A DNA stretch of 64,000 bases from Opitutales bacterium (GCA_965197745.1 CBDANS010000006.1:704001-768000), one strand, 5' to 3'. Counted from the stretch's first letter, positions 13,592 to 55,641 are shown. The notes: generated from the sequence alone by a model not told the origin. Numbers and translations: made by a program.

Positions 13592-15811
13592 TCATTCTAT
13601 CGTGATCTCATCAATATTCACCGCGATCTCGTCACCGTCCTCGTTGGCGAATGTGGCATCGATGCTCTGTGTCGGTTGAGGGGTGTTGTCGGATTTGAAG
13701 TTGTTCTGGGTGATCAAGGTTTCAAACCCGGTGGTTGTTGAACCACTCTCCGCGACTACGACTGCGGCATCATTTGTCTGCACCAGATCTCCGCCGGTGA
13801 TACGCAATCCCGGATTGCCAGCCGGCACCGTGAAGGAACCATCCGCAAACAGTAAATGCGGAACCGCGTCGCCACTGGCATCGATATCACCGACGGTTAA
13901 GCGCACCGCAATCGGGACTCCTCGCGCATCGACACCGACTTTTCCGGTGCTTCCAGAAAAAACAGTGTTCGACAACTGCATCCCTCCCATACCCGTGGAG
14001 TTAATCACTTCCACAAGGGTGACGTCCGCCTGGGCATCATAGACCTGTCCCTCCGGAAAGAGGGCCTGGTTCACGGCGTTGATCGATCCTACCGTAAAGA
14101 TACTGAAGAAGGTGTCGGCGTCCGCTCCGTCGATAACCACGCTCGGCTTGCCTGTAACGTACTCTACTGCCTGGTTGTAGCGCGGGGGAATGGCCGGTGG
14201 CAGGAAGGTGGCCGGGTCGAGGGTAACGGTAAAAGTCCCTGTGCCGGAGAACTCTACCTGTACAATGTCCTCGTTTTCATCCATGAAGGAGACCCGTGTA
14301 ATTTGTCCCGGTCTGGCCTGTAGCTGGATGGATTCACCCGTGAGTAAAATCTGGTCGAAGACATTACCGTTAGGGTGCTGAATATTTTCTCCGGCGATGT
14401 CTCCCGAGCCGTCGAGAACGAGGGGGACAGAAGGAGCGGCTACGGTAATGACAGCAGTATCACTGTCAGCGCTACCTCCGGCGTTGTTTATCTGTACCCA
14501 GAAGTTCGTGTTCGCGGTGAGAGCGCCGGTGGTGTAAGTGCTGCCGGTTGCTCCGGCAACGGGGTTGGCGGTGTCACCGCTGTTACCCGTATACCACTGG
14601 TAAGTCAGGTCGTCGCCACTGGCAGCGACGGACAGGCTCGCCGAAGCGCCCGACTGCACTTCCTGGCTGGCGGGATGGGTAGTTATGGATGGACCCTGTG
14701 CGGGAGGTGGTTCACCACCACTACCCGGTGCGCCGATGGGGGTATAACCGATGTCGTCCATGCTAATGCTATCAACATTTCCCGTTGTCGAAGTGATCGT
14801 CGTGTTCGTATAGTGGACACTTCCAATTCCCCCCGGAGCGCCTAATGCCACCGCATTGAAGTCGAAATAGGTAAATGGTTGACTAAATTCAACACTTATA
14901 TTCATGCCGATGTCGTCGGTCGATGTGAGCAAGTTACCTTCGGGATCGAAGATTTCAATTAAGCCATCGTTCTCAAAAAATACCGCGGCATAGAATTGTA
15001 CCTGAGCAACCGGGGTTTCAAATTCAATTACGCCGGTCGCTTCTTCAACCGGTTGGCCTGAGATCTCGGCAGCGACAACACCCCAAAACCAGCCGTCCGC
15101 CCCGGGTAAGGTATGGTAAAAAAATTGTGGACCTTTTGAGACGACACCACCCGTAACGGTGGCAGTGTACGGGGGAAAGCCTATAGTAAAATTACTTTTA
15201 CTACCATTAGGTGGTAAAAAAATCGCACGTTCCGCAGCCATCTCAAAATCATCAAATACTGTATTATTGGGCGGTCCTTCCACATAGGTAAATCCAAGGT
15301 CATCGATGGCGACTTGTCCTCCTGGATTGACGATCTTAATTTCTGTTACACCACTCGTAAAATTCAAATCCGTTAAATCCTGAATATCCCCGCTGAAGGC
15401 AACGAAGCTTTGCAGACCGGGGGTGGCTGGCAAACCGTTCACCACACCTGCTGGGGCAAGAGTAATAAAATTTTTATCTCTGAGTTCGATCCTGCCACCC
15501 CCCAGTGTGTCAGTAGCGTAGAACTGAAGCAGGTTTACCCCTCTTTCAAATAAAATTTTATGATCTGAAGCACTTGGATCGAGGACCAATGCTCGACTGC
15601 CCGAGTTAGCGAGACTGGATTCTACTCCATCTTGCAGAATGAAGCCAATTACGCGGATAGTAAAGGGCGCTTCCCCGATGATGAATTCCGATCCTTCAGC
15701 AGTAACATTTTCAAAATCGAAAAAAGTATCGAGATCCTGAGGTTCAGCTATTAGAAGAACGGGTAATACTATTAATATTAATAAAAAAGAACTACAATAT
15801 TTTAAGCTCAT
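13592..15811 (-). CDS. Secreted protein: two tandem beta-sandwich-like domains + Ig domain + conserved 274-aa C-terminal domain (CTD copy 1)
   Basis: Sec signal MSLKYCSSFLLILIVLPVLLIA; internal repeat (FFDFE..IDDLGFT / VFDDFE..MDDIGYT); PSITTHPASQ..LTYQWY Ig; CTD 13592-14416. Confidence 0.85.
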   Translation of the reverse strand: MSLKYCSSFLLILIVLPVLLIAEPQDLDTFFDFENVTAEGSEFIIGEAPFTIRVIGFILQDGVESSLANSGSRALVLDPSASDHKILFERGVNLLQFYATDTLGGGRIELRDKNFITLAPAGVVNGLPATPGLQSFVAFSGDIQDLTDLNFTSGVTEIKIVNPGGQVAIDDLGFTYVEGPPNNTVFDDFEMAAERAIFLPPNGSKSNFTIGFPPYTATVTGGVVSKGPQFFYHTLPGADGWFWGVVAAEISGQPVEEATGVIEFETPVAQVQFYAAVFFENDGLIEIFDPEGNLLTSTDDIGMNISVEFSQPFTYFDFNAVALGAPGGIGSVHYTNTTITSTTGNVDSISMDDIGYTPIGAPGSGGEPPPAQGPSITTHPASQEVQSGASASLSVAASGDDLTYQWYTGNSGDTANPVAGATGSTYTTGALTANTNFWVQINNAGGSADSDTAVITVAAPSVPLVLDGSGDIAGENIQHPNGNVFDQILLTGESIQLQARPGQITRVSFMDENEDIVQVEFSGTGTFTVTLDPATFLPPAIPPRYNQAVEYVTGKPSVVIDGADADTFFSIFTVGSINAVNQALFPEGQVYDAQADVTLVEVINSTGMGGMQLSNTVFSGSTGKVGVDARGVPIAVRLTVGDIDASGDAVPHLLFADGSFTVPAGNPGLRITGGDLVQTNDAAVVVAESGSTTTGFETLITQNNFKSDNTPQPTQSIDATFANEDGDEIAVNIDEITIE

Positions 15812-15904
15812 GCTCGACTCCTTATTCGTTGGCTCATATTTAATAAATAGATATTCCTGTTTGGGTCAATGGTTGTGAAAAACCCGAAAGCCTTAGCTTT
15901 TATA

Positions 15905-17833: not shown

Positions 17834-17957
17834 AGGTTACCTTATTTTCCCTTGGATAGGATAGGTTTCAATTTAAAACTCAAGCAGCAGGGAAAAATAC
17901 ACTGAGAACAACTCACCATGAAGGTGATTGATCATATAAGTAAAAAAATGAGAAAAA

Positions 17958-21159: not shown

Positions 21160-22089
21160 TCATTGGCTTTTTCTTTTTTGCTTATTCAGCCAAACTTTGG
21201 CCCTGTGTTCAGCTTCGGCAATTTGTGATGGCGCCATAACTCGTATAAGTATTTCTGTAAGGTTCTTGTCATCGGAGATGCCTGAAAGGGCCGCAATGCT
21301 TAACCAGGTATAGGCCCAGATGTAATTCTGCTGAACACCTCTGCCACTGGTGTACAACTCCGCCAGAATATATTGAGCATCGGAGTTTCCCTGGTAAGCT
21401 GCCTTGCGCCACCATTCAAAGGCTTGAGCATAATCGCGATTTACCCCTCGGCCCTCAGCATAAAATTCTGCAATTTTATTTTGGGCAATGGGGTATCCCT
21501 GTTCGGCTGATTTATATGTCCACTTGAAAGCCTCGGCATCATCCTGTTCAACTCCCTGGCCTTTTTCATATAACATTCCAACATTAAGTTGGGCTTTGGC
21601 ATCCCCCTGCAAAGCAGCCTGCTGGTACCATTTGAAGGTCTGGTCGTAATTTTGCTTAACCCCATAACCAAAGTAATAAAGTCTCCCGATCATGAATTGC
21701 CCCTCGGTAATTTGTGCCGGGGTCATGTAAGCCTTGATACTTTCCAGGTGTTTCAAGCTCGAAGCGTGACCGGCACCGGTCGCGACACTCAACCAGGTGT
21801 ACGCCCATATATAATTACGCTCTACTCCGTGGCCCTTGGCATACATTACTCCCAGATTGTTCTGGGCTTTAGCATGACCCTGTTCGGCCGCTTTTTGAGT
21901 CCATTTAAAGGCTTCATTTAAATCCTGGGTAACACCCTGCCCCTTAAAGTAAATAAGCCCAAGCTTGTACTGGCTCTCGACATCTCCTTTTTCTGCTCGT
22001 GCTTGTAAATCTGAAAGTGCGCCACTCTCTACACCGAAGGTTGCGCCGGCCATTAAAAGAAAAGCGATAATTGGAATCCAATGTTTCAT
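21160..22089 (-). CDS. Secreted Sel1-like repeat protein
   Basis: Signal peptide; repeated AQxxLGxxYxxGxGVxQDxxxAxxWxxKAAxQG. Confidence 0.92.
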   Translation of the reverse strand: MKHWIPIIAFLLMAGATFGVESGALSDLQARAEKGDVESQYKLGLIYFKGQGVTQDLNEAFKWTQKAAEQGHAKAQNNLGVMYAKGHGVERNYIWAYTWLSVATGAGHASSLKHLESIKAYMTPAQITEGQFMIGRLYYFGYGVKQNYDQTFKWYQQAALQGDAKAQLNVGMLYEKGQGVEQDDAEAFKWTYKSAEQGYPIAQNKIAEFYAEGRGVNRDYAQAFEWWRKAAYQGNSDAQYILAELYTSGRGVQQNYIWAYTWLSIAALSGISDDKNLTEILIRVMAPSQIAEAEHRAKVWLNKQKRKSQ

Positions 22090-22532: not shown

Positions 22533-24098
22533 TCAGTTTCTCCGCCTGAACTGCAAGAAGATGAAGAGGCAACCGATTGCCATTAAGACCCAAGTAGAAG
22601 GCTCGGGAACAACCTTCAGGCTAAGGGAATTAGAGGAAAATTGAGGTTGAAAAAACAGGTTTCCGGAAAACCCCAATGCGTCGTCGATAGAGCCGAAATC
22701 GCCAGACCTTAACCCCGTCCATGTGAGCACTTCAAAGCTCTGGCCCAGCGTTGGGAGCACTTCACCAAGCAGTAAAATGTCTAAATCTCCACTGCCAAAA
22801 TTTAAGTTTCCCGTTATATTCAATTGGCTAAAGTCAATCCCATCATTGATACTGATTTCTAACGCACTACCCGCATTGAATGTCAGGTCCCCTTCAATAT
22901 CTAAGGAAAAAACAGTATCAGGTGCAATCACTCCAAAATTTTCAATACTATCAATATCGAGTAGCCCGCTACCTTCTACCTGGCCATGATTTGTCAATGT
23001 TGATGCTTCCAATTCACTCGTAAGCACTCCACTGCTGGCAAGGGCGATAGTCCCACTTAAACTTATGGTTATATCGTTAGTAATAACTACCTGGCTCCCA
23101 TTAGTAATATTCAATTGCCCTGTCCCCAGATTGCCGACAAATAATTTGTCTGCATTTATGGTACCACCCCCCATAATCGTTAAATCCGCATCATCCGAAC
23201 TTGGCAGGCCAAGTTCAATAGCGTTATTTACGTCCAGGGTATTGTCGGCCATCGCGAAGGTCAGAGAATCATTGAGAACTTTAAGACCATCGACTAATTG
23301 ATCAGAGCTGAACGTAACGAGATAATTGCTGCCGCTCTGATTAAAATGAGCAATATCATCTGTACCGGGAACTATACCACCCACCCAGTTAGATCCAGCG
23401 CCAAAATCTCCGGGTAGTGGATTAGCCCACAAAAAGGGAACTTCGCTCAGAGCGGTTGAAATTTCGCTCGCGAGAAGAGGTCCATCCCAAATCCGGATTT
23501 CGTTAACGATACCTGCTGAAGCTTCTCCGAAACCAGTCGCTGCATCGTCCATAAAAAAAGCAAACCGAGCAAGTCCCCCGTTATCGACGGCTATCGCGCG
23601 GCTGGATGAATCAACAAAGGAGTACTCAGGAGAGGAGGACCCGTTCAGGTAAGTGGTATAGACATCGTCAGCTGAAGATCGAGTGAATACCACATTAATA
23701 AATTCATCAGGTTGAACAACCACCGAGCTTGTATGATGGGGGTCATAAAACCGTACATTACCACTCAAAATGTATTGACCTGAATCGATGGTACGGTTCT
23801 TGAAATCAACGATTTTATTCCAGCTGCTAACTGACTCAAAACTAAATTGAATCCCAATCGAATAATTATCTGCCAGGCTTAATGTGGTATCAAGAAACAA
23901 GCCTTCGTTCGTGCCGAATGAATAACTGTCGCTATTTATCGTTCCCCCATTTTCCGTTAATACGGTACTACTTAAGCTGTCGTTAAGGTTATTATCAAAT
24001 TCAAATAAATGTACTAAGGTAACTGCTTGAACACCGCTCCATGCCATGGAGCCAAAAAAAAGTCCGCATCCAAGTTTTATAATATTATGGAATGACAT
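22533..24098 (-). CDS. PEP-CTERM sorting-domain protein with LamG-like N-terminal domain and beta-helix-like region
   Basis: Signal peptide; C-terminus VPEPSTWVLMAIGCLFIFLQFRRRN; LVHLFEFDNNLND..VNEIRIWDGPL. Confidence 0.9.
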   Translation of the reverse strand: MSFHNIIKLGCGLFFGSMAWSGVQAVTLVHLFEFDNNLNDSLSSTVLTENGGTINSDSYSFGTNEGLFLDTTLSLADNYSIGIQFSFESVSSWNKIVDFKNRTIDSGQYILSGNVRFYDPHHTSSVVVQPDEFINVVFTRSSADDVYTTYLNGSSSPEYSFVDSSSRAIAVDNGGLARFAFFMDDAATGFGEASAGIVNEIRIWDGPLLASEISTALSEVPFLWANPLPGDFGAGSNWVGGIVPGTDDIAHFNQSGSNYLVTFSSDQLVDGLKVLNDSLTFAMADNTLDVNNAIELGLPSSDDADLTIMGGGTINADKLFVGNLGTGQLNITNGSQVVITNDITISLSGTIALASSGVLTSELEASTLTNHGQVEGSGLLDIDSIENFGVIAPDTVFSLDIEGDLTFNAGSALEISINDGIDFSQLNITGNLNFGSGDLDILLLGEVLPTLGQSFEVLTWTGLRSGDFGSIDDALGFSGNLFFQPQFSSNSLSLKVVPEPSTWVLMAIGCLFIFLQFRRRN

Positions 24099-24963: not shown

Positions 24964-27900
24964 TCATTCAATCGTAATCTCCTCAGTCGTCACCGCAATA
25001 TCATCACCGTCTTCATTAGCGAATGCCGCATTGATACTCCGTGTCGGTTGAGGGGTGTTGTCAGACTTGAAGTTGTTCTGGGTGATCAAAGTATCAAAGC
25101 CGGGGGTTGTCGATCCACTCTCCGCTACGACGATTGAAGCGCCGTTCGACTGGGCCAGGTCGCCTCCCGTAATCCGCAAACCCGGGTTGCCGGCTGCTAC
25201 CGTGAAGGAACCATCTCCAAACAGCAAATGCGGTACTGCATTACCATTGGCATCGATCTCTCATACCGTTAAGCGTACCGCGATTGGCACTCCTCGCGCG
25301 ACTACACCAACATCGCTCGTGTTACCTGAAAATACATTGTTCGACAACTGCATTCCCCCTATCCCCGTGGAGTTGACTACCTCTACTAATGTCACGTCGG
25401 CTTCGGCGTCATAGACCTGTCCCTCGGGGAACAGGGCCTGATTCACCGCGTTAATCGATCCAACCGTGAAAATACTGAAGAAAGTATTCGAGTTGGCTCC
25501 GTCAATGACCACGCTCGGCTTACCGGTGACGTACTCTACCTGCTGATTGTAGCGTGGGGGCAAAGCCGCGGGTAAGAAGGTAGCCGGGTCCAGGGTTATG
25601 GTAAAGGTCCCGCTCCCCGAGAACTCTACTTGTACGATATCCTCATCTTCGTCCATGAAGGAGACGCGTGTGATCTGCTCGTCCTTTGCCTGAAGTTGAA
25701 TGAATTCTCCGGTGAGCAGGACCTGATCGAAGACGTTCCCGTTGGGGTGCGCAATGTTTTCTCCCGCCACATCACCCGAGCCATCGAGTATTAATCTGGC
25801 AACCGCTGACAAGACAACATTATGCCGTCCCCCCGCAGTAATTGCGGTTACGTTGACTAACCCTTCAGGCGCTTCGGCCTGTCCGGAATCATTAAGCCCC
25901 CACCCGATCACTTCACCTTCAGCATCAAGGGCCAGGTTGTGGTTCAATCCAGCCGCTATGGAGGTTACCGCACTTGCATTGAAGGCCACCGTTATTTCAT
26001 TTTTCGCGCTTAAACTTGCCTGGGCTGCGTTAAAAGGAATATCCAATTGCCCAAAAGTATTATCACCCCAGGCTACCGTAACACTATCTTCGGTTAGGGC
26101 CAGGCTGTGGTTATCTCCTGCTGAGATGGCCGTCACATTAGTCAGGTTGGCAGGTACATCTGTCTGGCCGGAGTCGTTCCGGCCCCAGGCGACGACGGTG
26201 CCACCACTCTTTAAAGCCAGGTTATGAAACCCACCTGCTGCCAATGCTATTACATCAGTAAGGTCTCCGGGTGGTGTTGCCTGCCCATCGTCATTATTGC
26301 CCCATCCGATAACGGTACCATCGGACAATAAAGCGAGGCTATGACTTCCTCCCGCAGACACCGCGATCGCATTCGTTAATCCCGCAGGAACATCCGTCTG
26401 GCCGTTATCATTGTTACCCCAGGCGACGACGCTACCATCCGCTATCACGGCTAAATTATGATCATACCCGGCATCCACATCGGTCACATCAGTTACTTCA
26501 GCGGGCACCGTCGACTGTCCTGCCTGATCTCTACCCCATCCCACTACGCTACCGTCATTTCTCAAACCGATATTGTGGTCTAATCCCGCTGACACCTCGG
26601 TCAGTTCAGGCGCGCCCTCTCCGCGAATAGCTCCCGGCACACCACCCTGATCAAATTCATCACTGCCATATCCGGCAGCCGTTATCCTCGTTTCAATTTC
26701 TTCCTCCACAGGAGGTTCACCATTTCCTGTTTGCCCGCCAGCGTCATTAGTGTAGAAGCTATTGTAAGAGAGATTTTGCTGGTCATGGTATTGCAGATCC
26801 AGGTTTGTAACGTCAGCCCAGGGAATATTTTCACTGTTAAGGTCAATATTTTTGATATTGCTGAGTTGATCGTTTAGTATTCGTAATAAAGTAGGACCGT
26901 TTTGCCGCGTTATCCGAAACTGGAATCCGTTAATGGGAAAGGTGGGGGAAATATCATTCCCGGTTGAAGGATCCCTATAGGTCCAGGAAACACTTTGGAT
27001 ATTATTGTTACTGTCGAGCATCACAGTAGGCAGGATAACCAGATGGTAATTTTCTGCCATGGAAGTATCGAAATCAGTTGTAATATCCATGCCTTTATAA
27101 TTTACGATGTAAGTGCCACTTGGTGGGTAAGGCGGAATACTTACACTGGATATACCATAAAAGCTAATATCTTCACCTGGATTAAAAAAAATAGCAGGAC
27201 TATTATTGTATTGCGCGCCGTTGGGTCCGCTGAAGAACACCTGGTTCGGATCGGGAAGTTCTGTGTCCACCACGCTGAAGTTAAGAAAATAATTTAAATT
27301 AGCGGGGAAACCTTGATCCACACCGACTATACTTCCAGTGGGTTCTGTGAAATTTCCACCGGATTGAAAAATCATGCTGATAGTGTTTACGGGTACGCTC
27401 TCGCCCGTAGTACGCAGGAAAAAATCGGTAGTAGCAACGTAACCGGCTGACCCGATAACAATCTCGACCGGGTTGCCAACCATGTAATCAGTATCATTGG
27501 TGTCGACGATATTGATAAAATTCAAAACCGCCAAGTAATCCGTTCCCGGTTGCAGGGTGCCCGCAGGAATAGTGACCAAGGTAGCTGAATAGTCCAATGC
27601 TCCGGGTTCAGGGGGAAAAGAGGTTTCAAAAACTACATTTCCATCCATATAAGTTTCAATTTCCACGATGAGAAAATCTCCTGCATTGCCATTGGCGAAA
27701 GCATCCCAGGTGAGCGTAAAATCCATTTCAGGATCGACCGTTTGCGCTGCGGAATGATTAGTTATGTGAGGGGGCAGCCGGAAACCTTAACCCGTTAACC
27801 GGATCGCTATTTAAATTTAATAGGGCGGATATGTTGCCATCATTAACGGTATACATATTCATAAAATAAATGCCATCAGGGAAACTGGAGTCGAGATCGC

Positions 27901-28225
27901 CAATCGAATCAAAGCCTGGTTCTATAAGCCAATCACCTCCAATTTCCTGGTCCAATGACAGAGGACTGCTCCCCGGAGGCACAACCATAGCCATGGTAAC
28001 GGAATCAGAGGCGGTTCCCTCAAGCTCAGCGAGGAAGTGGTAGGGGCTCATACTATTCGGTAGTGGAGCACCATCATCATCCTGACCGAAATCTGCTTCT
28101 TTGAGTACTAAATAAAAATCCACATCGGCAGCGTGCAGGTTCATTTCAGCTATAAACAGAACGGTAATTATTAGAGCTAAGGTATGAGAGAACGATATGA
28201 GTATTATTTTCATTACGGTAATCAT
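24964..28225 (-). pseudogene. Secreted RCC1-repeat protein with conserved CTD (copy 2), interrupted
   Basis: Three ORF pieces join: frameshift in G5 run 27770-27774; in-frame TGA at 25261-25263 where paralogs have Gly (RLTVGD); AGxxHxLAL..GxVxAWG repeats; CTD 24964-25788. Confidence 0.85.
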
Positions 28226-37728: not shown

Positions 37729-40625
37729 TCACTCGATTGTGATTTCATCGACGGTGACGGTAATATCATCCCCATCCTCGTTAGCGAAAGTAGCACTGAT
37801 ACTCTGTGTCGGCTGAGGAGTATTATCGGATTTGAAGTTGTTCTGCGCAATCAAGGTCTCAAACCCGGGAGTCGTCGAACCACTCTCTGCAACTACGATC
37901 GAAGAATCGTTTGTCTGCGCCAAGTCTCCTCCCGTGATGCGCAACCCGGGGTTACCAGCAGGCACTGTAAAGGAACCATCTCCGAACAGAAGGTGTGGCA
38001 CTGCATCGCCACTGGCTTCGATATCGCCCACCGTTATCCGTACCGCGATAGGCACTCCGCGCGCGTCCACCCCTACCTTGCCGGTGCTTCCCGAAAAAAC
38101 AGTGTTGGACAGCTGCATTCCTCCAATCCCTGTGGAGTTGATCACTTCTACCAGGGTCACGTCCGCTTGTGCGTCATAGACCTGTCCTTCGGGGAAGAGG
38201 GCCTGGTTCACCGCGTTGATCCTTCCTACCGTGAAGATACTGAAGAAGGTACTGGAGTCAGCTCCATCGATGACCACGCTCGGTTTACCTGTCACGTACA
38301 TTACCTGCTGGTTATAACGCGGGGGCAGTGCCGCGGGTAAGAAAGTCGCCGCGTCCAGGGTTAAAGTAAATGTACCCGCTCCGAAGAATTCTACTTGGAC
38401 GATGTCTTCGTCTTCGTCCATGAAAGAAACTCGTGTAATCCGATTCTCTTTCGCCTGGAGCTGAATGGATTCTCCGGTGAGTAAAACCTGGTCGAAAATG
38501 TTACCGTTGGGATGTTGGATGTTCTCACCGGCGATATCACCTGAACCGTCGAGGATAAGGTCCACGACAGTAGATTCAAATAAAACAAAATTATGTCGGC
38601 CTCCAGCAGTAATTTCCGCAATGTTAGAAAATCCTTCAGGTATTGTAGCCTGGCTATCTGAGTTGTCACCCCATGCAATAATGCTACCCTCAGAATCTAA
38701 TGCGAGATTATGCCTAATACCTGCTGCAATAGAAAATACACTGGAGGCATTAAACTGAGCGGTATAACCCTGCTTGGATGGAGAATTGAATACAATCGGA
38801 ATGTCGAGTTGGCCTCGGTCATTACTTCCCCAAGCTATTATTGTGCTGTCTTCTTTCAAAGCTAAGCTGTGTGCTTTACCGGCAGCTATAGCCACCACAT
38901 TAGAAAGTCCCACTGGTACTGTTGCTTGACCCTCAACATTATAACCCCAAGCGACAACAGTACCACCTTCTATCAACGCTAATGCATGAGAACCACCGGC
39001 AGCGATCTTCACCACATCCTCAAGTCCCATGGGTAATACTGTTTGCCCGAAAATGTCGTTCCCCCAGGCCTCCACCGTACCATCTGCTTTTAAGGCAAGA
39101 CTGAAATCTCCTCCCCCCGCCACCTGTATGACATCAGAAAGACCTGCAGGCACAATTGATTGTCCGAATGTATTTCCACCCCAGGCAACTACGGTGCTAT
39201 CCTCTTTCAAGGCCAAGGTGTGAAAATAACCCGCTGCCACTGATATTACCTGGGAAAGATTTTCAGGAACCTGCAACTGACCGAAGCTATCTGATCCGAG
39301 TACTTCTACCGTACCGTCCGACCGTAAACCCACACTGTGTTCATCTCCAGCCACAACCTGAACCAGGTCGGTAAGTCCAGCGGAAATAGTTGCTTGCCCA
39401 GATTCGTCGTTGCCCCAAACTCCAATAGTATCTGTCGATCGTGACAGGTATCCGCTATCTATTCTAGAGACACCAAGGACATCTCCTAAGCTACCACTCT
39501 CAATCCAATAGTAGTAGGTTATATCCGGAAGTGCGGTCATATCATCGTAGACCTTTGTATCGAGATCAGCTTTCAACAAGACAGCATTTTCTCTTTCAGG
39601 CACGATATTCCTGTAAAGATTATCAGTTACGTCCAAGCCTGCTACTCCCACCCAGGCTATCTGAACTTTATCGGAGAAGGTGCCGTCGGTTGCTATCAGA
39701 AACTCATCATCGTCCTCATCGAATTCTTGAGTTCGATAGAAGACAACCGTATTAAAATCAGCAATCAAGTTGTTTATTACAGTCAATGAATCGGACCCAG
39801 CACTTAAGTCCAATAAGTTGCCATCCAGTTCAAGGTAGAGTAGATTGGACAATCCAGATAGAGGGCTAAGATCATTAATAGCGTTAAATGAAAGTCCAAG
39901 TGCATTCAGTTGAGTAAGACCAGCCAGGGGGTAATATCACTTATCTGATTCTTTGTAAGATCAAGGAATGAAAGGTTGGTTAAACCAGCCAATGGACTGA
40001 TATCACTGATCTGATTGTCGTAAAGCCATAGGAACTCCAGTTGGGTCAATCCGGCTAATGAACCGATATTACTGATTTGAGTTTCCTCAATAAATAATTC
40101 ACCCAATTCAGTTAAATCGCTCAACGCGCTAATTTCACTTATCTGATTCTTTGTAAGATCAAGGAATGAAAGGTTGGTTAAACCAGCCAACTGGCTGATA
40201 TCGCTGATTTGATTTCGCTCGAGTGTCAATTCTACCAACTCAATTAAACCGCTTAATGCACTGATATCACTGATCTGATTGCCGTAAAGATCCAGTTTCT
40301 CCAGTTTGGTCAATGCAGCCAATGGGCTGATATCACTAATCAGGTTTTCACCAAGTCCAAGGTTAGTAAGGTTAATAGCATGTTCAAGACCCGTTAAATC
40401 GGTAATTCCCAGATCAAACGCGTTGATACGAATCAATAACGCCATGTCCGTGTCTGTTATCGGCCCCTCGATGTTCGGTCCCTCCATGCCCTCGCCCTCA
40501 CGCTCGCCTGCGCGAATTGCAAGTTCCAGGTTCGGGTCTGGAATCGTTATGTCCACACCGTGCAATTCGGCGCATGCAAAAACCAATAACCAAAAAATAC
40601 CTGTAAGTAATATGACCGTTTTCAT
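37729..40625 (-). pseudogene. Secreted internalin-type LRR + RCC1-repeat protein with conserved CTD (copy 3), frameshifted
   Basis: Signal MKTVILLTG..; IPDPNLE cap and NQISDISxLxxLxxL repeats; single frameshift at G5 run 39927-39931; RCC1 repeats; CTD 37729-38553. Confidence 0.85.
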
Positions 40626-40853
40626 ATCAGATGATACCACTCAAAGAGTTGGGTTAATGCAGCAGACAGCATTGCAAACGCTATACTCAGATGCAGATAA
40701 TATCAACGTTGCGGTCAAACTATGCATTATGATATTTTAATCTCTATCCTGCTTATCAGATAGTTTTGCATGCACCAGAAATGCACCGGGTAGAATTTAT
40801 AATTCATAAATCACAATTCATAATTCATCATTTTTCATTCATAATTTAATAGC

Positions 40854-41020: not shown

Positions 41021-43093
41021 TTACTCAATCGTTACCTCTTCAGTCGTCACCGTGACCTCTGCATCATCCTCGTTGACGAAGGCAGCATTGATGCTCTGTG
41101 TCGGCTGAAGTTCTCCATCCGACTTAACATTGTTCTGAGAAATTAGAAAATCAAAACCGGGACTCATTGAGTCGCCAAGGGCAACAACAATAGAGGCACC
41201 ATTATTCTGTTGAAGATCACCTCCCGCAATTCTCAAGCCAGAGTTCGGCGCTTCCGCGGTGAAAGAATCTTCTCCAAACAATAGATAGGGAACTGCATCA
41301 TTGCCGGCTTCGATATCACCTATTAATACGCGAACAGAAACGGGAATGCCAGGCGCCTTCAGTCCGACGTCTCCTGATGATGCACTAAAGTGTGTATACG
41401 CACATAGGATTCCACCAAAACCTGTTGAATTTGTAATTTCTAATAGTGTTATGTCCGCTACCGCGTCGTAGCTCTCACCAACAGGGAATAAATCCTGGTT
41501 TACGGCATTAATTCTGCCCACGGTAAAAATGCTCAGGTAGGTACTCTCATCCGCATCCTCCACTTTTATATTGGCACTCCCTTTTACATAATTGATCTCT
41601 TGATTGTATTTCTTTGGTCGGTCAGGAAGCTCAAAAGAACTCGGATCTATATTGATAGTAAGCCTTCCCGCTCCAAAAAATTCAACTTGGGCAATATCAT
41701 CATCTTCGTCGATAAAAGATACCCTTGATATTTGCACCGGGTCAGCAATCACTTCCACACTTTGCCCCGTCAATAAAACCTGGTCAAAGACATTGCCATT
41801 GGGATGCTCAATATTTGATCCAACTTGTGATCCGTTTCCTTGCAATAGAACATTTTTGTCGGAGTCCGGGTCATCGGAATCAGCGATGCCGTCACCATCC
41901 GAGTCTGTCTCACGGATATCACTTATTCCGTTTCCATCGTCATCGTCGTCTTCAACATCAGGAATACCATCGTTGTCGCCGTCGCTTTCTTCATCATCGG
42001 GAATTTCATCGATGTCTGAATCCACATACTCCACATACGCGAACTCACCGTCCAGCCAAATTAAAGCTGCATATTCATTGTCTCCAATGGTGAGGTTAAA
42101 TGATACAGGATTATCCGTCTCAGATAGATCGACTCCCTCTGCCACCACCACAAATTCGAATGACCCATCATCTCGTTCTATCAATTCAAAAATAATTCCG
42201 GCATCATATAGTTCTCCCTCAAATGCGAAATACCCAGGTTCAAACTCTGTAAATGCCCCCGCGGGAATCTCAATAACCGAGGTCCCGAATGCGACCCTCA
42301 CCCCTTCATGAATCAGATTAATCCCGTCATTTGTTGTTCTCAGTGTAATTTTACCACTGATCCCGTATGCATCATCAATAGAGAGGAGCGATTCATATCT
42401 AATCTCTATTCCCGTGATGGTGAATATCGATTCTGGAAATTCGTCATCCTCATCAATGTCACTTTCTTCCTCAAAGTCGTGGTCATATTCATCAAAATCG
42501 CCTTTTTCCTCAAAGTCATCTTCGTCTTCGTGAAAATCCTCCTCGTCCTCAAAATCGTCTTCCTCTCCCACGAAGTCGCCTTCTTCATCAAAGTCGTCGT
42601 CCCCTTTAAAATCATCATTGTCGCTTAACTCAAAATTCAGCTCATCATTCATTCGAATCGATATTTCTCCCTCATCATTGCCTATCCTGAACGCAATTGA
42701 TAATGGATTGAATGTACCTGTCAGATCGACACCCCCGGCTTCTACTTCAATTATGAAAGTTCCATCATCTCTTTCTATTATTTCAAAAAAAACTTTGGCG
42801 CCATTCACTTCTCCCTCAAAAGCGAAATATCCAGGTTCCAACTCTATAAATGCACCTGGGGGAATCTCAATAACCGAGGTCCCGACGGCAAGCCTCACCT
42901 CTTCATTTACCGGGTCAATTCCTTCACTTGTTATATTAACGGAAAGTTCGCCTCTGATCCCGTATGTATCATTTATGACAGGAAATGATTCATATATAAT
43001 TTCAACTCTCGTAATAATGAAATCCAGAAAAGGATCTCCCCTTACAAGCAAGGGTGTTATTAAACACAATACGGTTAACAACAATTGACGCAT
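41021..43093 (-). CDS. Secreted highly acidic protein: duplicated ~135-aa domain, D/E-rich linker, TSP3-like repeats, conserved CTD (copy 4, most divergent)
   Basis: Signal MRQLLLTVLCLITPLLVRG; GTSVIEIP.GAF.E.EPGYFAFEGE occurs twice; DGDNDGIPD/DSDGDGIAD; CTD 41021-41845. Confidence 0.85.
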   Translation of the reverse strand: MRQLLLTVLCLITPLLVRGDPFLDFIITRVEIIYESFPVINDTYGIRGELSVNITSEGIDPVNEEVRLAVGTSVIEIPPGAFIELEPGYFAFEGEVNGAKVFFEIIERDDGTFIIEVEAGGVDLTGTFNPLSIAFRIGNDEGEISIRMNDELNFELSDNDDFKGDDDFDEEGDFVGEEDDFEDEEDFHEDEDDFEEKGDFDEYDHDFEEESDIDEDDEFPESIFTITGIEIRYESLLSIDDAYGISGKITLRTTNDGINLIHEGVRVAFGTSVIEIPAGAFTEFEPGYFAFEGELYDAGIIFELIERDDGSFEFVVVAEGVDLSETDNPVSFNLTIGDNEYAALIWLDGEFAYVEYVDSDIDEIPDDEESDGDNDGIPDVEDDDDDGNGISDIRETDSDGDGIADSDDPDSDKNVLLQGNGSQVGSNIEHPNGNVFDQVLLTGQSVEVIADPVQISRVSFIDEDDDIAQVEFFGAGRLTINIDPSSFELPDRPKKYNQEINYVKGSANIKVEDADESTYLSIFTVGRINAVNQDLFPVGESYDAVADITLLEITNSTGFGGILCAYTHFSASSGDVGLKAPGIPVSVRVLIGDIEAGNDAVPYLLFGEDSFTAEAPNSGLRIAGGDLQQNNGASIVVALGDSMSPGFDFLISQNNVKSDGELQPTQSINAAFVNEDDAEVTVTTEEVTIE

Positions 43094-43757
43094 AAACAGA
43101 GATTCAGCCAATAACTTCCAGTGAAAGAAGCAGGTTGGCTGAGCGTGTAAATTCGATACTGATTTTTTTTTAATCATAGCTTTCATTTTATTTCCTCCTC
43201 AGCAGGAAAAGGTTAATGGACCCTACCTTCCTTGTTCCGGGTTCCTATAATACAACAAATTATAAGAGAATACCCAGTTGTGATATTTGATTAATCCCAA
43301 TTAATCAGCAGGTAGTAGGAAATCAATTAAGGTATAATAATGAATCAGTTTTGAAACTCAATTCTATTAATTATCTAGGTTATAGATTTATATATTTTTA
43401 ACAAGGTAGAGTAATTAAAACTTCTTTAATTCCGAAGATGCAGTCAGCCTCATTAATTTTTTTATTAATCGCTAATCTCATAATTGCGGTAACGGATGTA
43501 TTGGGATACGCGAATGGTCAAACGAGATGAGACTTCATCATCAGCGCTTCAGCGCGTATTAGGTGTTAAGAATAGAAGGTTCCCTTCGACTACGCTCAGG
43601 GCAGGCAGGGTTCAGCGGTTAAGAGAATGATTAATCTGATAGGATCAATCAGTAATCGTAATCAATCCGCATTCCTCAATCCGACATCCGCAATTGATTC
43701 ACTCTATCGTTACTTCTATCGCAGTGATAGTTGAGAACCAAATCTTCATAGTATTAT

Positions 43758-46208
43758 TTAAGTCGGTTTTCCCTGAGAGACAGCAGTACTCTCTTCCAAA
43801 CTACCTATTTCATTATGGTAGGCTACAGCTGTAGCGCCAACAACAGTCGAGAAAAACAACATACCCATGAATATCAAAAATGAAATAAGTGCGTATCCAA
43901 ATGATGCTGGAATAATCCTGGTGGGTTCGCGAACTGACACATAAAATATAACAGACATCATTAATAATGGAAACCAGAAGGCATACATATAAGAGAAAAC
44001 CAAAAACGCAGAAGCAAAACGATGTTTAATCGCTTCTTTACTTAGACGGAAAGCAGCAAAAATCTTGATATCGCTTTCAGCAACTAAGTTTAAGGCATGC
44101 AAATGTTGCCTTTCTATTAAAGCGAATAATACAAATAAACCTAAAATGAATAATGCCCATATGCTAACAGCGATAATCTTATATCCATCTAGAATTAATT
44201 CTAAGTACTGTAATAGAAACTTACCAATAGCACTATAGCCACCGGAAATAACTGAAGTCACCATAACGATACAAAAACCGGCACCAAAAAGTGGGAAGCA
44301 TTTCTTTAGATACATATAAATATCCGTTCCCTTAACCTTTTCTCCTCGTATCGCCTTTAAATACATTCCTTCTAATCCAGTAACAAGAGTTGGGAATAAA
44401 AATGAAAGCATCATTAAAAATAATATTAATGATACTACTACAATGGGTATAATACTTCTAAACCAAAGCTCTCTTGATAATAATAAAAATAAACCCAATA
44501 TTACAACTAAGTGAAAACCTCCGAAAAAAAATGCCAAGAAATGAGATTTTGTAAGCTGCCAGCTTTCACTAAAATATTTACGAATAGTATTTTCTCGAAC
44601 AATGATGACTATCATAATAAGCAGTATGATTCCTATGAATCCGACTGCTACCTGGCCCATGGCATATATTAAACCAAGGGTGGATTGGGCCTGGGTCATT
44701 ACCTGGTCGGCTGCTTTGCGGTACCAATTGACGGCTTCGAAAAAATTTTGCTCAACTCCTCGGCCCTTGGTATACATTGACCCAAGGTTGTTTTGGGCTT
44801 TAGCATGCCCTTGTTCTGCTGCTTTGAGATACCATTTTATGGCTTCGACATAATCCTGAGGTGCCCCTCGGTCACTCTTATACATCAACCCAAGATTATT
44901 TTGGGCCTGGGCCAATCCCTGGTCGGCCGCCTTACGATACCATTTAACCGCTCCCGCATAATCCTGCTCTACCCCTTCGCCATTCTGATACATCGCCCCA
45001 AGTTTGTATTGGGCCTCGACCATTCCCTGATCGGCCGCCTTGCGAGTCCATTTACCCGCTTCGACATAATCCTGCTCTACCCCTTGGCCATTCTGATACA
45101 TCCACCCAAGATTATTTTGGGCCTGGGCCAATCCCTGGTCGGCCGCTTGGCGATACCAATTAAAGGCTTCGACATAATCCTGCTCTACCCCTTCACCATT
45201 CTGATACATCTCCCCAAGGTTGGATTGGGCTTGGGCATGCCCTTGTTCTGCTGCTTTGAGATACCATTTTATGGCTTCGACATAATCCTGAGGTGCCCCT
45301 CGGCCACTCTGATACATCCACCCAAGATTATTTTGGGCCTGGGCCAATCCCTGGTCGGCCGCTTGGCAATACCAATTAAAGGCTTCGACAAAATCCTGTT
45401 CTACCCCTTCGCCCTTGGCATACTTTGACCCAAGGTTGGTTTGGGCAAGAGCGTGTCCCTGTTCTGCTGCTTTGCGGTACCATTTTACGGCTTCCATATA
45501 ATCCTGCTCTACCCCTTCGCCGTTGGCATACACCACCCCGAGGTTGGTTTGGGCTTGGGCATGCCCTTGTTCTGCTGCTTTGCGGTACCATTTTGTGGCT
45601 TCCATATAATCCTGCTCTACCCCTTCGCCGTTGGCATACATCACCCCAAGGTTGGTTTGGGCCTGGGCCAATCCCTAGTCGGCCGCCTTACGATACCATT
45701 TAATCGCTCCAGCATAATCCTGCTCTACCCCTTCGCCATTCTGATACATCGCCCCAAGGTTGGTTTGCGCTTTGGCATGCCTTTGTTCTGCTGCTTTGAG
45801 ATACCATTTTATGGCTTCGACATAATCCTGAGGTGCCCCTCGGCCACTCCGATACATCAACCCAAGGTTGGATTGGGCCTGGGCCAATCCCAGTTCGGCC
45901 GCCTTACGATACCATTTAACCGCTCCAGCATAATCCTGCTCTACCCCTTCGCCCTTGGCATACTTTGACCCAAGGTTGGTTTGGGCAAGAGCGTATCCCT
46001 GTTCGGCTGCTTTGCGGTACCATTTTACGGCTTCCACATAATCCTGAGTTACCCCTCGGCCTTTGTCATACATCATCCCAAGGTTGTTTTGGGCTTCAGC
46101 ATCGCCTTTTTCGGCGCGTGCTTTTAAATCTGATAACTCGGTATTCTCTGCTTCCAGCGCAGTGCCGAGTAGAAATAGGATAGCGAAAATTGATAGCCAA
46201 TGCTTCAC
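43758..46208 (-). pseudogene. Signal peptide + 13 Sel1 repeats fused to a multi-pass membrane domain; in-frame TAG
   Basis: 108-bp tandem repeats; TAG at 45675-45677 where sister repeats read CAG (AADQGL); several hydrophobic helices in the AT-rich 3' part. Confidence 0.85.
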
Positions 46209-46426: not shown

Positions 46427-48331
46427 TTATGGCGTAGGACGAAAGCGAAAAGAATAGAGGTCGGCGTCTTTGCAAACAAAACGTAAACGGACGGGTTGTC
46501 CCGACAGTTTGCCAAGACTGGAAGAATCCAACCAGTTTACCTTGCGCTCGATGGAGTCGCCGAATACAGGGTGACAATCCGCCAAAGTAAATCCTTCTAT
46601 CGGCTTGCCCGATGCACCCTGGATTTCTACCTGGACACCACCAGCGGCGGAGCTCGAGAAATTAATGACCATCTCGTCGCCATCGAAAACAAGCGGCTTG
46701 GTGACCAGTTCACCGCCGCTGAGAGGCGCATTGATCGAAACGAACCCGTCGATGCGCATAGTATAGCGGCGAAGATGACTGCTCGTACCAGTCCAATAGC
46801 CTTCCGTGGCATAGAGAGACAACTCGTTCGGAGCGTCTTCAAATTTCGACTTTGTTTCAACCAAATGCCAGGCAATGTACTGGTTACCGTAGGCCCAACT
46901 GTGTTTTCGCTCGATTCCCGGTCGCAGAAACGCTTCATCCCATCGTTTGAAAGTCTGTCCGTCTCGACTGGTCATGAAAAGGGCTTCGGTAACAGCGGCG
47001 CCGAATCGGGGCTCCAGCTTATCATGGCCTTCGTGAACAATAAGCTCTAGATCAGAACCGGCTCGTTGAAGGCGCTCGGATAATTCCGGCAGCGCACTTG
47101 TTGAATCCGTCCATCCGCGGTTGATATAGCGGGTAGGGAAGCCGATAAGAATATGAGGCGCTCGGTAGTACGGTTTGATCTGGTTGGTGTAAAGATGATC
47201 GGGCCGCGCGCCTGGGTACTTTAGACGAACGGGATCGACCCAGTTTATAAAGTCACTCGAGGTCATCGTCATTATGTCGCGGCGGTCATCCGGCCAGGAA
47301 CGAAAGTAGAGACGGTAAAGACCATTAGCAGAATCCCAAAAAGCCAGGTTTTGCGAATCGAAATAAATACTTTTTACGGTCGGTTCAAAGATCTTCATTT
47401 CGCTTTCTGAAATGATCTTTTTGTCACTCATTGCTGTCCAATGAATGCCGTCAGCCGACTTAAAAACCCTTAATCCTTCGAAATCACCGGACACGCGGAT
47501 GGCTTTGTAACGTGCATCCGGTGGGGCTTCCGGGTTTGTGTCTTTAAACACCGCGACATGTCCTGCGTCGACAGCATTGAGAAATATCGGACCAAACACG
47601 GCTCTGTCAGAATCACTCGAACCTTCATCGACCGGAGTGACGGGGGAAGCCGCTACGGTGATGACCGAGGTATCACTGTTAATATAAACTCCGGCTTTTG
47701 TTGTTATCTGGACCCAGAAGTTTGTGCTCTCATTGAGAGGGCCGGTATTCAGTGTGTTGCTGGTTGCTCCTGCGATGGGGTTAGAAGTGTCACCAGGTTT
47801 GCCGATATACCATTGATATTTCAGACCGTCACCTTTTACGACAATGGAAATAACTACCGCGGTACCGGACTGCACTTCCCAGTCGGTCTGGTTGTCGGCC
47901 CACATGATATTGTTTTTCTTTGATCCGTTGAACTCAATGAGACCCAATTCGGGTTTGCGCCAGTGAATACCGTCGTCACTTTCCGCGTAACACAAGAATA
48001 GCGGGTGCGTCCAGTCGAGCATACCTTCGGTGGTAGTATACTGGCTCGCCTTGTAGTACAAACGAAAGAGATCACCGTCTTTAAAGATGCTGTGATAGTT
48101 CGTGGCATTGCCTTCCCAAGGTTCATCGTGCACAATTACCACATCCTGCGGAGTGGGATGGTGTAAAATCATTCGGGCTTCACTGGACAACTCGTCGACT
48201 AAATAATCATCGACAAACAACTCCCAACGCGAACCAATGTCGATCGGCTCCTGAGAATGGTTGGAAATGTCAGCACAAGCGAGAATGAGTACTGTTGATA
48301 ATAAAATATATACTTTTGATAATAATTTCAT
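46427..48331 (-). CDS. Secreted/lipoprotein beta-propeller glycoside hydrolase-like protein (GH32/43/130-like) with inserted Ig domain
   Basis: LFVDD, YAESDDGIHWRKP, SADGIHW, DSQN, SRDGQTF Asp-box-like motifs, RIDGFVS; Ig insert about 47573-47890. Confidence 0.75.
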   Translation of the reverse strand: MKLLSKVYILLSTVLILACADISNHSQEPIDIGSRWELFVDDYLVDELSSEARMILHHPTPQDVVIVHDEPWEGNATNYHSIFKDGDLFRLYYKASQYTTTEGMLDWTHPLFLCYAESDDGIHWRKPELGLIEFNGSKKNNIMWADNQTDWEVQSGTAVVISIVVKGDGLKYQWYIGKPGDTSNPIAGATSNTLNTGPLNESTNFWVQITTKAGVYINSDTSVITVAASPVTPVDEGSSDSDRAVFGPIFLNAVDAGHVAVFKDTNPEAPPDARYKAIRVSGDFEGLRVFKSADGIHWTAMSDKKIISESEMKIFEPTVKSIYFDSQNLAFWDSANGLYRLYFRSWPDDRRDIMTMTSSDFINWVDPVRLKYPGARPDHLYTNQIKPYYRAPHILIGFPTRYINRGWTDSTSALPELSERLQRAGSDLELIVHEGHDKLEPRFGAAVTEALFMTSRDGQTFKRWDEAFLRPGIERKHSWAYGNQYIAWHLVETKSKFEDAPNELSLYATEGYWTGTSSHLRRYTMRIDGFVSINAPLSGGELVTKPLVFDGDEMVINFSSSAAGGVQVEIQGASGKPIEGFTLADCHPVFGDSIERKVNWLDSSSLGKLSGQPVRLRFVCKDADLYSFRFRPTP

Positions 48332-52210: not shown

Positions 52211-52223
52211 ATGCTTATGTGAT

Positions 52224-52283
52224 ACATAACATGCCGCTCCAGCGGACGCGAAATAAGCGCGGCACTGAGCTTAATCGTTAGTA
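52224..52283 (+). mobile_element. Integron attC site
   Basis: ACATAAC-ATGCCGCTCCAGCGGACGCG..GCGCGGCACTGAGCTTAATC-GTTAGTA, 60 bp; R'' complementary to the cassette 5' GTTATGT. Confidence 0.85.
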
Positions 52284-52636
52284 GAATCCGCTTATTCTAA
52301 GCCGCATCAAACAATCGAAAATAGATAACATCAGCTCGCAATCAAAACGCTTCCTCAGCGATCCTCCAGCGTTGTGGTGCTTTGCGTAACGAAACTAAAA
52401 GCAAAATTGCAGTGCGTCATCTCATATCATCGATTTAATATTATATTAATATATATTGGGATAAAAATAGTGATATAAAAATAAACCTTTCTTGATTATT
52501 AAGCACTTAAAACATCAAACCAACAGTTTATACATCAATTGTTATAAGTACTATATCCTCTATTGTAAATTTACTCACCCGATGCCTTGAACTAAGAATA
52601 TCTGCCTAATTTTCGGATTCTTGGCCGCTCGAGTCG

Positions 52637-53632: not shown

Positions 53633-53727
53633 CGTTCAGATAAGAAATCGCTGTTGTTTATACATCAACTGACTAAAATGCCTCATATACCATCATGTAA
53701 TTACCCTTTATCAGATAACGGTCCCAC

Positions 53728-55641
53728 CTACTCTATCGTTACCTCTTCCACAGTGACAGAGATTTCCTGACTATCTGCGTTTACGAATGTCGCAGCAATG
53801 CTCTGTGTCGGCTGAGGAGTGTTGTCGGACTTGAAGTTATTCTGGGAGATCAAAGTTTCAAATCCCGTCGTCGTCGATCCACTCTCCGCGATGACAACTG
53901 CGACACCGTTTGTCTGCAATAGATCGCCACCGGTGATACGTAATCCGGAGTTGCCGGCTGCAACGGTGAAAGATCCCTCACCAAACAAGAGGTGAGGTAC
54001 TGCATCGCCACTGGCTTCGATGTCGCCAACGGTTAAACGCACAGCGATCGGTACTCCGCGTGCATCGACGCCCACTTTGCCCGTGCTACCACTGAAGACA
54101 GTGTTCGACAGTTGCATCCCACCAATCCCCGTGGAGTTGATCACTTCTACCAGGGTGACGTCGGCTTTTGCATCATAGACCTGTCCCTCGGGGAACAGAG
54201 CCTGGTTCACCGCGTTGATTGATCCCACGGTGAAGATACTGAAGAAAGTATTCGCGTCAGCTCCGTCGATAACGACGCTCGGTTTTCCGGTCACGTACTC
54301 GACTGCCTGGTTATAGCGAGGGGGAGTGGCCTGGGGCAGGAAGGTGGCTGGATCGAGGGTGACGGTAAAGGAACCTGCACCCGAAAACTCTACCTGCACG
54401 ATGTCCTCGGTTTCATCCATGAAGGAGACGCGTGTGATTTGATTCGGTCTTGCCTGCAGCCGGATCGATTCTCCAGTGAGCAGGATCTGGTCAAAGATAT
54501 TGCCATTCGGATGCATGATATTCTCGCCCGCGATATCACCGGTTCCTACAAGGACCAGCGGCACGGACGGGGCTGCTACGGTGATGACCGCGGTATCACT
54601 ATTGGTGCTCCCTCCGGCATTGGTTACCTCTACCCAGAAGTTGGTGCTTTGGGTAAGAGCACTGATGGTGAAGGTGCTGCTCGTGGCACCGGCGATGGGA
54701 CCGGCGGTGTTACCGCTGTTTCCGGTATACCATTGGTAGGTGAGATCATCGCCGCTGGCTGCGACGGACAAGCTTACCGATGAGCCGGCCTCTACTTCCT
54801 GGCTCGCGGGTTGAGTCGTGATCGAGGGAGCACTGGGACCTTCCCCGTTATTAGAATCGGTAGTGAGACTAAATGCATAAGCTGCGCCTTTACCAGTTGA
54901 TGTGTCGGGAAATATGAATTGAAGCGCTCCCACTACCACCGTGTCGCCACTGATTGCTCCAGAAAAGCCAAAAAAGTCATCCACTGCCCCATCGCTGGCC
55001 AATAGCTTAGTTACTTGGCCCCAATTGCCGATTCCTCCTTGGTTGCGTTCATATACGTAGGTTGAGCCGGAATCGATACCGTTGTCATCGTCTCCACCAA
55101 CCCCAACCACCACCGTGTCGCCGCTGATCGCTACAGAAAAGCCAAAGAAGTCATGCACTGTGCCATCGCTGGCCAATAGCTTAGTTACTTGACCCCAATT
55201 ATCGATCCCCCCTTGATCGCGTTCAAATACGTAGGCTGAGCCGGAATTGATGCCGTTGTCATCGTCGAGAACCGCGCCAACTACCACCGTGTTACCGCTG
55301 ATTGCTACAGAAAAGCCAAAGCGGTCACCCGCTGCGCCATCACTGTCCAATAGCTTAGTTACTTGGCCCCAATTATCGATCCCCCCTTGATCGCGTTCAA
55401 ATATGTCGGCTGAGCCGGAATCGATGCCGTTGTCATCGTCTCCACCAGCCCCAACCACCACCGTGTCACCGCTGATCGCTACAGAAAAACCAAAAAAGTC
55501 ACCCTCCACTCCATCGCTGGCCAATAGCTTGGCCGACTCTTCAATTACTGTTGATTGGGCGTGTAGCATGTTAATTATAAACATACTTATCGCTAACAAT
55601 AAAAACGTAATGGCAGCGATGGGATTGCCCTTTAGGAACAT
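53728..55641 (-). CDS. Secreted FG-GAP repeat + Ig domain protein with conserved CTD (copy 5)
   Basis: Signal peptide; four FGFSVAISGDTVVVGA-type repeats at 174-bp period; PSITTQPASQ..LTYQWY; CTD 53728-54552. Confidence 0.88.
   Translation of the reverse strand: MFLKGNPIAAITFLLLAISMFIINMLHAQSTVIEESAKLLASDGVEGDFFGFSVAISGDTVVVGAGGDDDNGIDSGSADIFERDQGGIDNWGQVTKLLDSDGAAGDRFGFSVAISGNTVVVGAVLDDDNGINSGSAYVFERDQGGIDNWGQVTKLLASDGTVHDFFGFSVAISGDTVVVGVGGDDDNGIDSGSTYVYERNQGGIGNWGQVTKLLASDGAVDDFFGFSGAISGDTVVVGALQFIFPDTSTGKGAAYAFSLTTDSNNGEGPSAPSITTQPASQEVEAGSSVSLSVAASGDDLTYQWYTGNSGNTAGPIAGATSSTFTISALTQSTNFWVEVTNAGGSTNSDTAVITVAAPSVPLVLVGTGDIAGENIMHPNGNIFDQILLTGESIRLQARPNQITRVSFMDETEDIVQVEFSGAGSFTVTLDPATFLPQATPPRYNQAVEYVTGKPSVVIDGADANTFFSIFTVGSINAVNQALFPEGQVYDAKADVTLVEVINSTGIGGMQLSNTVFSGSTGKVGVDARGVPIAVRLTVGDIEASGDAVPHLLFGEGSFTVAAGNSGLRITGGDLLQTNGVAVVIAESGSTTTGFETLISQNNFKSDNTPQPTQSIAATFVNADSQEISVTVEEVTIE

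Follow-up and report, generated by a model that had tools for sequence, protein, structure and literature searches.

Results and Discussion

A constant terminal domain shared by secreted proteins

We analysed a stretch of 64,000 nucleotides from a marine Opitutales bacterium (GCA_965197745.1 CBDANS010000006.1:704001-768000; this whole stretch is called the window below), in which the same unnamed C-terminal module closes five minus-strand reading frames, ending at 13592, 24964, 37729, 41021 and 53728. This constant domain of 275 residues belongs to a large family of the source genome, stands at the terminus of nearly all of its proteins there, is kept by purifying selection, yields a confident fold model and has no named relative in the databases that were searched. 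Because it is a constant, folded module that occurs at either terminus of unrelated, Sec-exported heads, enzymes among them, and is nearly unchanged among old paralogues, we tentatively propose that it may be a terminal docking and retention module, comparable in its working to SLH or CWB2 domains. We give this proposal somewhat less than an even chance; the surface location, the nature of the ligand and the docking itself are what we infer from these observations.

The initial annotation had described one C-terminal domain of invariant length at the end of these five genes, and we agree, as the 275 codons of all five copies align without a gap. The copies are 0.556-0.876 identical in amino acids and 0.583-0.794 in nucleotides, the most divergent being the one that ends at 41021 (56-58% identical to the other four). 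The acidity of the domain and its lack of a terminal aromatic residue were also correctly noted: the four intact copies have an isoelectric point of 4.05-4.15, with 31-42 aspartate and glutamate residues versus 9-12 lysine and arginine residues, contain no tryptophan and 0-1 cysteine, and end in ...TIE, with neither a terminal aromatic residue nor a hydrophobic tail.

Three of the five window genes are intact in this assembly and have clear signal peptides. The first (13592-15811, minus strand) encodes 739 amino acids, made up of the signal peptide, two variable modules that each end in IDD[LI]G[FY]T, an Ig_7 domain (residues 375-457) and copy 1 of the constant domain (13592-14419, 275 codons plus stop, for which the fold model described below was made), and this architecture is the dominant one of the genome's family. 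In the second (41021-43186, minus strand; 721 amino acids), the signal peptide is followed by two repeated modules of about 190 amino acids with acidic linkers, an aspartate-rich stretch and the divergent copy 4 (41021-41848); a Pfam scan of this product matched no family on any part. The third (53728-55641, minus strand; 637 amino acids) combines its signal peptide with four FG-GAP_2 repeats, an Ig_7 domain (residues 269-355) and copy 5 (53728-54555). The two remaining genes, both with RCC1 repeats and one also with leucine-rich repeats (LRR), have their signal upstream of a frameshift, as described in the last part of this section, so the statement that all five carry Sec-type signals holds for three intact genes with a signal of their own. 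The claim that the five passengers differ is correct for the window, apart from the RCC1 repeats that two of them share, but does not extend to the whole genome, where most N-terminal parts belong to one architecture.

The domain family in the source genome

A protein search of the source genome (Opitutales, 4.45 Mb in 7 contigs, 92% complete; G000 below) with the domain gave 100 matches. When a hidden Markov model (HMM) built from the four intact window copies was run over all open reading frames (ORFs) of at least 60 amino acids in this genome, it matched 97 of them, with a full-length domain in 75, and these 75 ORFs account for 3.41% of the genome's DNA. The domain ends 0-3 residues from the stop codon in 73 of the 75, the remaining two having 124 and 150 residues after it. 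A crude hydropathy rule detected a hydrophobic stretch at the N-terminus of 58 of the 75. Clustering of the heads from 73 ORFs gave 14 groups (51, 5, 3, 2, 2 and 2 members, and eight singletons); the 51-member group shares the architecture of signal peptide, two variable modules, Ig_7 and constant domain.

One gene, C7:133177-134604 (locus L110 9178-10605), is the only one in the source genome in which a signal peptide is followed by a constant-type domain and then a 150-residue tail. Ten of the 150 best cluster representatives of the wider search described below are built in the same way, some only about 40% identical, and genes with a signal peptide, the domain and a tail of about 150 residues are, as far as their sequences indicate, a conserved subfamily. 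With the tail as query, matches were obtained in G000, G002 and G143, and none in G001, G003, G028, G223, G258 or 36 other relatives searched. We also considered whether this gene encodes a universal "core base protein" to which the others are partnered; this was unsupported with this single query, and the context of the gene held nothing informative.

Age of the copies and constraint on the domain

Mean pairwise identities of the protein regions were calculated over 41 paralogues of 700-800 amino acids from the 51-member group. They were 0.87-0.95 for the constant domain (0.74 for its last 22 columns), 0.70-0.83 for the Ig domain and 0.18-0.69 for the heads, which also contain many indels. 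Nei-Gojobori medians for nonsynonymous (dN) and synonymous (dS) divergence were dS 1.04, dN 0.072 and dN/dS 0.064 for the constant domain, and dS 1.12, dN 0.140 and dN/dS 0.124 for the Ig domain; in the heads, dN was 0.496 and dN/dS 0.207, with dS saturated in 62% of pairs. Since dS is about 1 while dN/dS is 0.064, the copies are old and the domain is maintained by strong purifying selection.

The longest identical run between copies had a median of 26 nt (1,485 pairs of 55 ungapped copies) and, in 400 sampled pairs, a mean of 31.4 nt versus 25.3 nt after codon shuffling, while a few copy pairs share identical runs of 116-321 nt. Gene conversion between copies exists but is occasional; as most pairs are without long identical tracts, the sameness of the copies is therefore mainly the work of selection, as would be expected if they fit one partner.

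The GC content at third codon positions was 0.611 in the constant domain versus 0.439 in the heads of 65 genes (genome GC 0.455). This contrast, for which the segments 13592-14419 and 14420-15811 are an example in the window, persists despite near-saturation of synonymous sites between copies; either selection on synonymous sites or GC-biased conversion would be compatible with it.

Range and wider family

Named records that bear the domain include an Opitutales metagenome-assembled genome (MAG), OY829953.1, with dozens of loci, and "Verrucomicrobia bacterium Opi.OSU.00C", and MAGs of Opitutaceae and Opitutus carry it at 37-57% identity. Among 40 relatives searched, it was present in all three genomes of the bacterium's own family (at least 61, at least 61 and 30 matches) and in one of 37 other families of the order (G028, 5 matches). 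An even phylum sample of Verrucomicrobiota contained it in 3 of 300 other genomes, all three of genus g51, with genomes of 5-6 Mb and up to 46 first-look candidates. A HMMER search over 1.84 billion cluster representatives returned 753 proteins at E <= 0.001, each standing for a cluster at 50% identity, and 547 at E <= 1e-30.

The conserved core comprises positions 3-223, and the final 50 residues vary by lineage. Across 107 diverse sequences, the polar positions H15, Q23, R42, D47, D51, Q54, E56, Y81, Q83, Y87, N117, D128, D132, Q214 and N216 are invariant or nearly so.

The position of the domain was counted in the best 150 of the 753 cluster representatives, "terminal" meaning within 70 residues of an end. 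It was C-terminal in 99 and N-terminal in 23, lay within 70 residues of both ends in 19 (short proteins, fragments, or proteins with two copies, such as P0054, P0056 and P0058) and was internal in 9. The N-terminal cases are genuine, as many begin with a typical signal peptide followed directly by the domain, and in P0087, P0116, P0134, P0135 and P0146 a basic leader ending in LE.R.LLA immediately precedes it (a stricter leader pattern caught three of these five). The initial annotation had stated that homologues commonly N-terminal or stand-alone would speak against its reading, and the N-terminal, internal and two-copy proteins go part of the way towards this.

Thirty chosen representatives were scanned with Pfam, and the families seen alongside the domain were NHL and DUF5122 propellers, He_PIG and Ig-set domains, a subtilase, glycosidase-like domains, a beta-lactamase fold with Golvesin_C, FG-GAP, LRR, CARDB and, once, TonB_C; 12 of the 30 matched no Pfam family at all. 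The expectation that the domain sits on Sec-exported proteins with unrelated heads was supported both in the window (RCC1, LRR, FG-GAP and two-module heads) and elsewhere (subtilase, beta-lactamase, glycosidase-like, NHL and beta-propeller heads).

Database searches and predicted fold

The initial annotation did not recognise the domain, and database searches gave the same result. Pfam and NCBIfam scans placed no family on the domain in any of the four intact proteins, and a PDB sequence profile of the domain had no hit at E <= 1. With full-length proteins, the PDB profile matched only the Ig region (positions 311-459; best E 3.8e-19), mainly to phage Ig-like tail and decoration proteins. A row for PF15698 "Phosphatase" (15.8-17 bits, cut-off 28.4), which appeared in two of the four proteins, was taken as chance. 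Public sources label the relatives "hypothetical protein" or nothing, and a full-text literature search turned up no paper on the domain, a result that holds for this search. The best ESM Atlas scores, 0.81 for an unnamed Verrucomicrobiota cluster and 0.76 for an unnamed Planctomycetota cluster, are both below the level at which a match is more than a lead.

An AlphaFold model made from the four window copies alone was unusable (predicted local distance difference test, pLDDT, 41) and was replaced by an AlphaFold2 model of copy 1 from an alignment of 107 diverse rows, with a pLDDT of 97.4 and a predicted template modelling score of 0.93. This model is all-beta, with about 20 strands, in keeping with the earlier description of the domain as beta-rich. 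Comparison with VIA-align gave a top Z of 6.8, and most of the 50 best rows, judged from entry titles, are right-handed parallel beta-helix proteins (Z 5.1-6.8, values below 8 being such as may mean a common arrangement only). The best row was the CAP C-terminal domain (1k8f_A; Z 6.8, root-mean-square deviation, rmsd, 3.3 over 126 residues), and others were tailspike depolymerases, pectate lyases, pectin methylesterases, pertactin-type passengers and a beta-helical antifreeze protein, many of these proteins being glycan-binding or surface proteins. The rows aligned over 126-187 residues with an rmsd of 3.3-5.9 and 4-15% identity, except for two acetyltransferase rows with an rmsd above 11. A homodimer prediction of the domain scored 0.00 against a mark of 0.42, which we give no weight either way.

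A putative docking module and its alternatives

In the model that we favour, the 275-residue module would be a self-folding, beta-helix-like terminal domain that, after Sec export, holds many different secreted proteins at one shared site of the cell envelope. Its cargo would comprise lectin-like two-module heads and RCC1, LRR and FG-GAP repeats, with enzymes added in relatives, and either a surface glycan, in keeping with the fold, or an envelope protein might provide the shared site. The module would then function as SLH or CWB2 domains do and not as a cleaved sorting peptide. That old paralogues have hardly diverged in the domain suggests that its contact surface is large or that it makes several contacts. 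Among the functions that the initial annotation had offered, an anchoring module appears to be the best reading.

SLH and CWB2 are non-covalent surface-anchoring modules of Gram-positive surface proteins and exoenzymes, and SLH docking modules occur at either protein end. They resemble the present domain in that one constant terminal module is found on many secreted proteins per genome, with enzymes as well as adhesin-like heads; they differ from it in that there is no sequence match in Pfam or NCBIfam, in that the domain is modelled as beta-helix-like and in that its host is a diderm member of the Verrucomicrobiota. Type I dockerins, which are calcium-binding helical duplications of about 70 residues, are also constant modules that plug many different secreted proteins into one site, but the domain here is far larger, at 275 residues, and apparently beta-helix-like, and no repeated partner of the cohesin type came to light, no search having been aimed at one. 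What we suggest is that the domain may work like SLH, CWB2 and dockerin modules, not that it is a member of any of these families.

Several observations weigh against a docking module. The domain is internal in the 9 representatives counted above. Seventeen of the 75 full-domain ORFs are without a detectable N-terminal hydrophobic stretch, many of which look truncated. The 75 genes are dispersed, as 50 singletons, 9 pairs, one trio and one quartet; the few domain loci that were read showed no conserved neighbour, and no partner or ligand emerged. As for the fold, Foldseek returned no match at E <= 0.001 in PDB or BFVD (best E-value 1.1), and of the 48,161 chains compared by VIA-align, 54 reached Z >= 5 and not one reached Z >= 8. 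Because of these two results, we describe the modelled domain as beta-helix-like by arrangement and do not claim homology.

The domain could instead be the business end of these proteins, a lectin-like or adhesin-like beta-helix that binds one external ligand, such as host matrix or an environmental polysaccharide, with the heads adding specificities or activities. A beta-helix-like arrangement is common in glycan-binding and adhesin proteins, the domain co-occurs with adhesin-like Ig and propeller repeats, and the wealth of Sel1, ankyrin, LRR and RCC1 repeats and sulfatases in the window points to a host- or polysaccharide-associated life. However, 75 copies of an unchanging binder on changing heads would be the reverse of usual adhesins, in which the binding tip varies, and the occurrence of the domain in large, GC-rich Opitutus-type genomes of 5-6 Mb makes a host-specific ligand unlikely; on balance we think such a binder unlikely, if a serious competitor. 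A catalytic role, as a lyase, hydrolase or esterase of the pectate-lyase-like class acting on polysaccharides, could draw on the many depolymerases, lyases and esterases among the structural rows and on the invariant or nearly invariant polar residues. The domain matches no enzyme family in sequence, however, the Z values are in a range common for unrelated models, relatives already carry it joined to other enzymes, and 75 near-identical catalytic copies per genome would be odd, so that we hold this to be the least probable of the explanations discussed here. It is also very unlikely, in our estimation, that the domain is a structural stalk, an autochaperone-like folding nucleus or the unit of a self-assembling, S-layer-like lattice. 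Beta-helices act as stalks and autochaperones in autotransporters, and old paralogues are still about 90% conserved along the full length of the domain, which suggests that its exposed residues are fixed too, as with large contact surfaces. Nothing direct was found against these roles, but a pure spacer would need no such constraint.

The initial annotation had also considered an export-recognition module, and an analogue of the C-terminal domains (CTDs) of the type IX secretion system (T9SS), recognised by dedicated outer-membrane machinery and possibly attached covalently, deserves comparison. T9SS CTDs (Por_Secre_tail and CHU_C, in Bacteroidota) are small beta-sandwiches of about 70-100 residues. 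The proteins described here resemble T9SS cargo in their order of Sec signal, passenger, Ig_7 and conserved C-terminal domain and in the dozens of cargo genes per genome; the order of passenger, Ig_7 and CTD recalls T9SS type B cargo in particular, and the Pfam name of Ig_7 is "CHU_C associated". The almost strictly C-terminal position (73 of 75 ORFs of the source genome) and the very strong conservation would also suit a sorting domain. The domain differs from T9SS CTDs in being a fully folded unit of 275 residues, modelled as beta-helix-like and not as a small sandwich, and in not being strictly C-terminal. The 23 N-terminal homologues argue against an obligate C-terminal sorting tag, and the 9 internal and some tandem cases stand against it as well. 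In addition, the T9SS families PF11751, PF14349 and PF18962 (PorP/SprF, SprA, Por_Secre_tail) had no match in the 92%-complete genome, in searches run without a positive control. The idea of an export signal is weakened by the N-terminal, internal and tandem positions and by the domain being a confidently folded globular unit and not a short tag, and we regard a sorting domain as distinctly improbable.

Two further systems were compared. The separate PEP-CTERM gene reported for the window is present at 22533-24098 (minus strand; 521 amino acids, PF07589 23.2 bits, cut-off 20.7), a known and separate sorting route, and among the window proteins PF07589 matches only this one and no domain gene. 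PEP-CTERM is likewise a lineage-restricted C-terminal feature of secreted proteins, and the system exists in the same genome, which has two exosortase genes, six PEP-CTERM matches and three secretin matches; domain ORFs outnumber PEP-CTERM matches about 12-fold (75 vs 6). The domain differs in having no PEP motif, membrane helix or basic tail and in ending in ...TIE. From type V autotransporters it differs in that no barrel family was found on it, its last residue is glutamate and its model is beta-helix-like, not a barrel. The best structural resemblance is to right-handed parallel beta-helix proteins (1k8f, pectate lyases, tailspikes and pertactin-type passengers), from which the domain is set apart by the lack of a row at Z 8, of a Foldseek match and of a catalytic motif assignable to it.

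A bolder form of the docking proposal would be that the domain marks an undiscovered surface-display system of Opitutales, and possibly of Planctomycetes, in which a dedicated envelope partner or machinery would read the beta-helix at either end of a protein and attach dozens of proteins to the cell; in marine, host-associated lineages this system would have grown to about 75 cargoes and would present eukaryote-like repeat proteins. We consider this form a long shot. In Verrucomicrobiota, the placement of proteins at the surface is barely known beyond PEP-CTERM, and in the present genome about 75 secreted proteins carry a single unnamed domain, among them RCC1, LRR and FG-GAP proteins, kinds believed to act in contact with animal hosts. 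Were the domain named, thousands of entries now called "hypothetical proteins" would gain an annotation (it matches 753 clusters at 50% identity), and identification of its partner would reveal how the surface of this lineage is built. With a model of such high confidence, the domain lends itself readily to expression, binding assays and structural studies.

Two disrupted genes and comparison between strains

The gene ending at 24964 is disrupted into three pieces (24964-28225, minus strand). A separate ORF (27758-28225) encodes its signal peptide, shifted by one frame, with the frameshift in a C5 run near 27770; a second ORF (25261-27726) contains an unnamed N-terminal part, RCC1 repeats and the first 176 residues of the constant domain; and the last 87 codons of this copy 2 (24964-25791) are found at 24964-25227, downstream of an in-frame TGA at 25261-25263 that lies inside the domain. 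The gene ending at 37729 (37729-40640, minus strand) is split by a frameshift into a signal peptide and LRR ORF and an ORF with a linker, RCC1 repeats and copy 3 of the constant domain (37729-38556). The latter ORF (37729-39852, in an open frame of 37729-39936) has no signal peptide of its own, the signal being located in the LRR ORF (39906-40640), one frame off, with the C5-run frameshift near 39926-39931.

Among 11 runs, no RNA run carrying the sequence was listed. Contigs of run X6, which come from a different study and a related strain, have one base fewer at 27770 and one extra behind 39926, and by hand reading these single-base changes would bring each upstream signal-peptide ORF in frame with the downstream ORF. 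Contigs of X1 and X3 are identical to the window at both frameshift sites; X1 or X3 is possibly the source sample, and their agreement is therefore not independent support for the window reading. The two frameshifts in C5 runs (27765-27775 and 39926-39931) may reflect recent decay or slippage-type on/off switching of surface-protein genes, for which a C5 run is short by the measure of classical phase variation.

Other genes of the window

The window is rich in eukaryote-like repeats (three Sel1 proteins, ankyrin and LRR, at 21160-22089, 33098-33922, 39906-40640, 43758-45671 and 45675-46208), and also contains the cargo with RCC1 and FG-GAP repeats, as well as four PhyH-family dioxygenases and two sulfatase ORFs, a set of genes that looks like that of a host-associated organism. 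Three secreted paralogues of about 80% identity and without a Pfam family lie at 46427-48331, 57803-59689 and 56212-57762 (minus strand). Two of them hold an Ig_7-type module (GD.L.YQWY.G..GDT...) inserted near residue 150, which is missing from the third and is the same module that precedes the constant domain in other genes; the Ig module seems to move between gene families.

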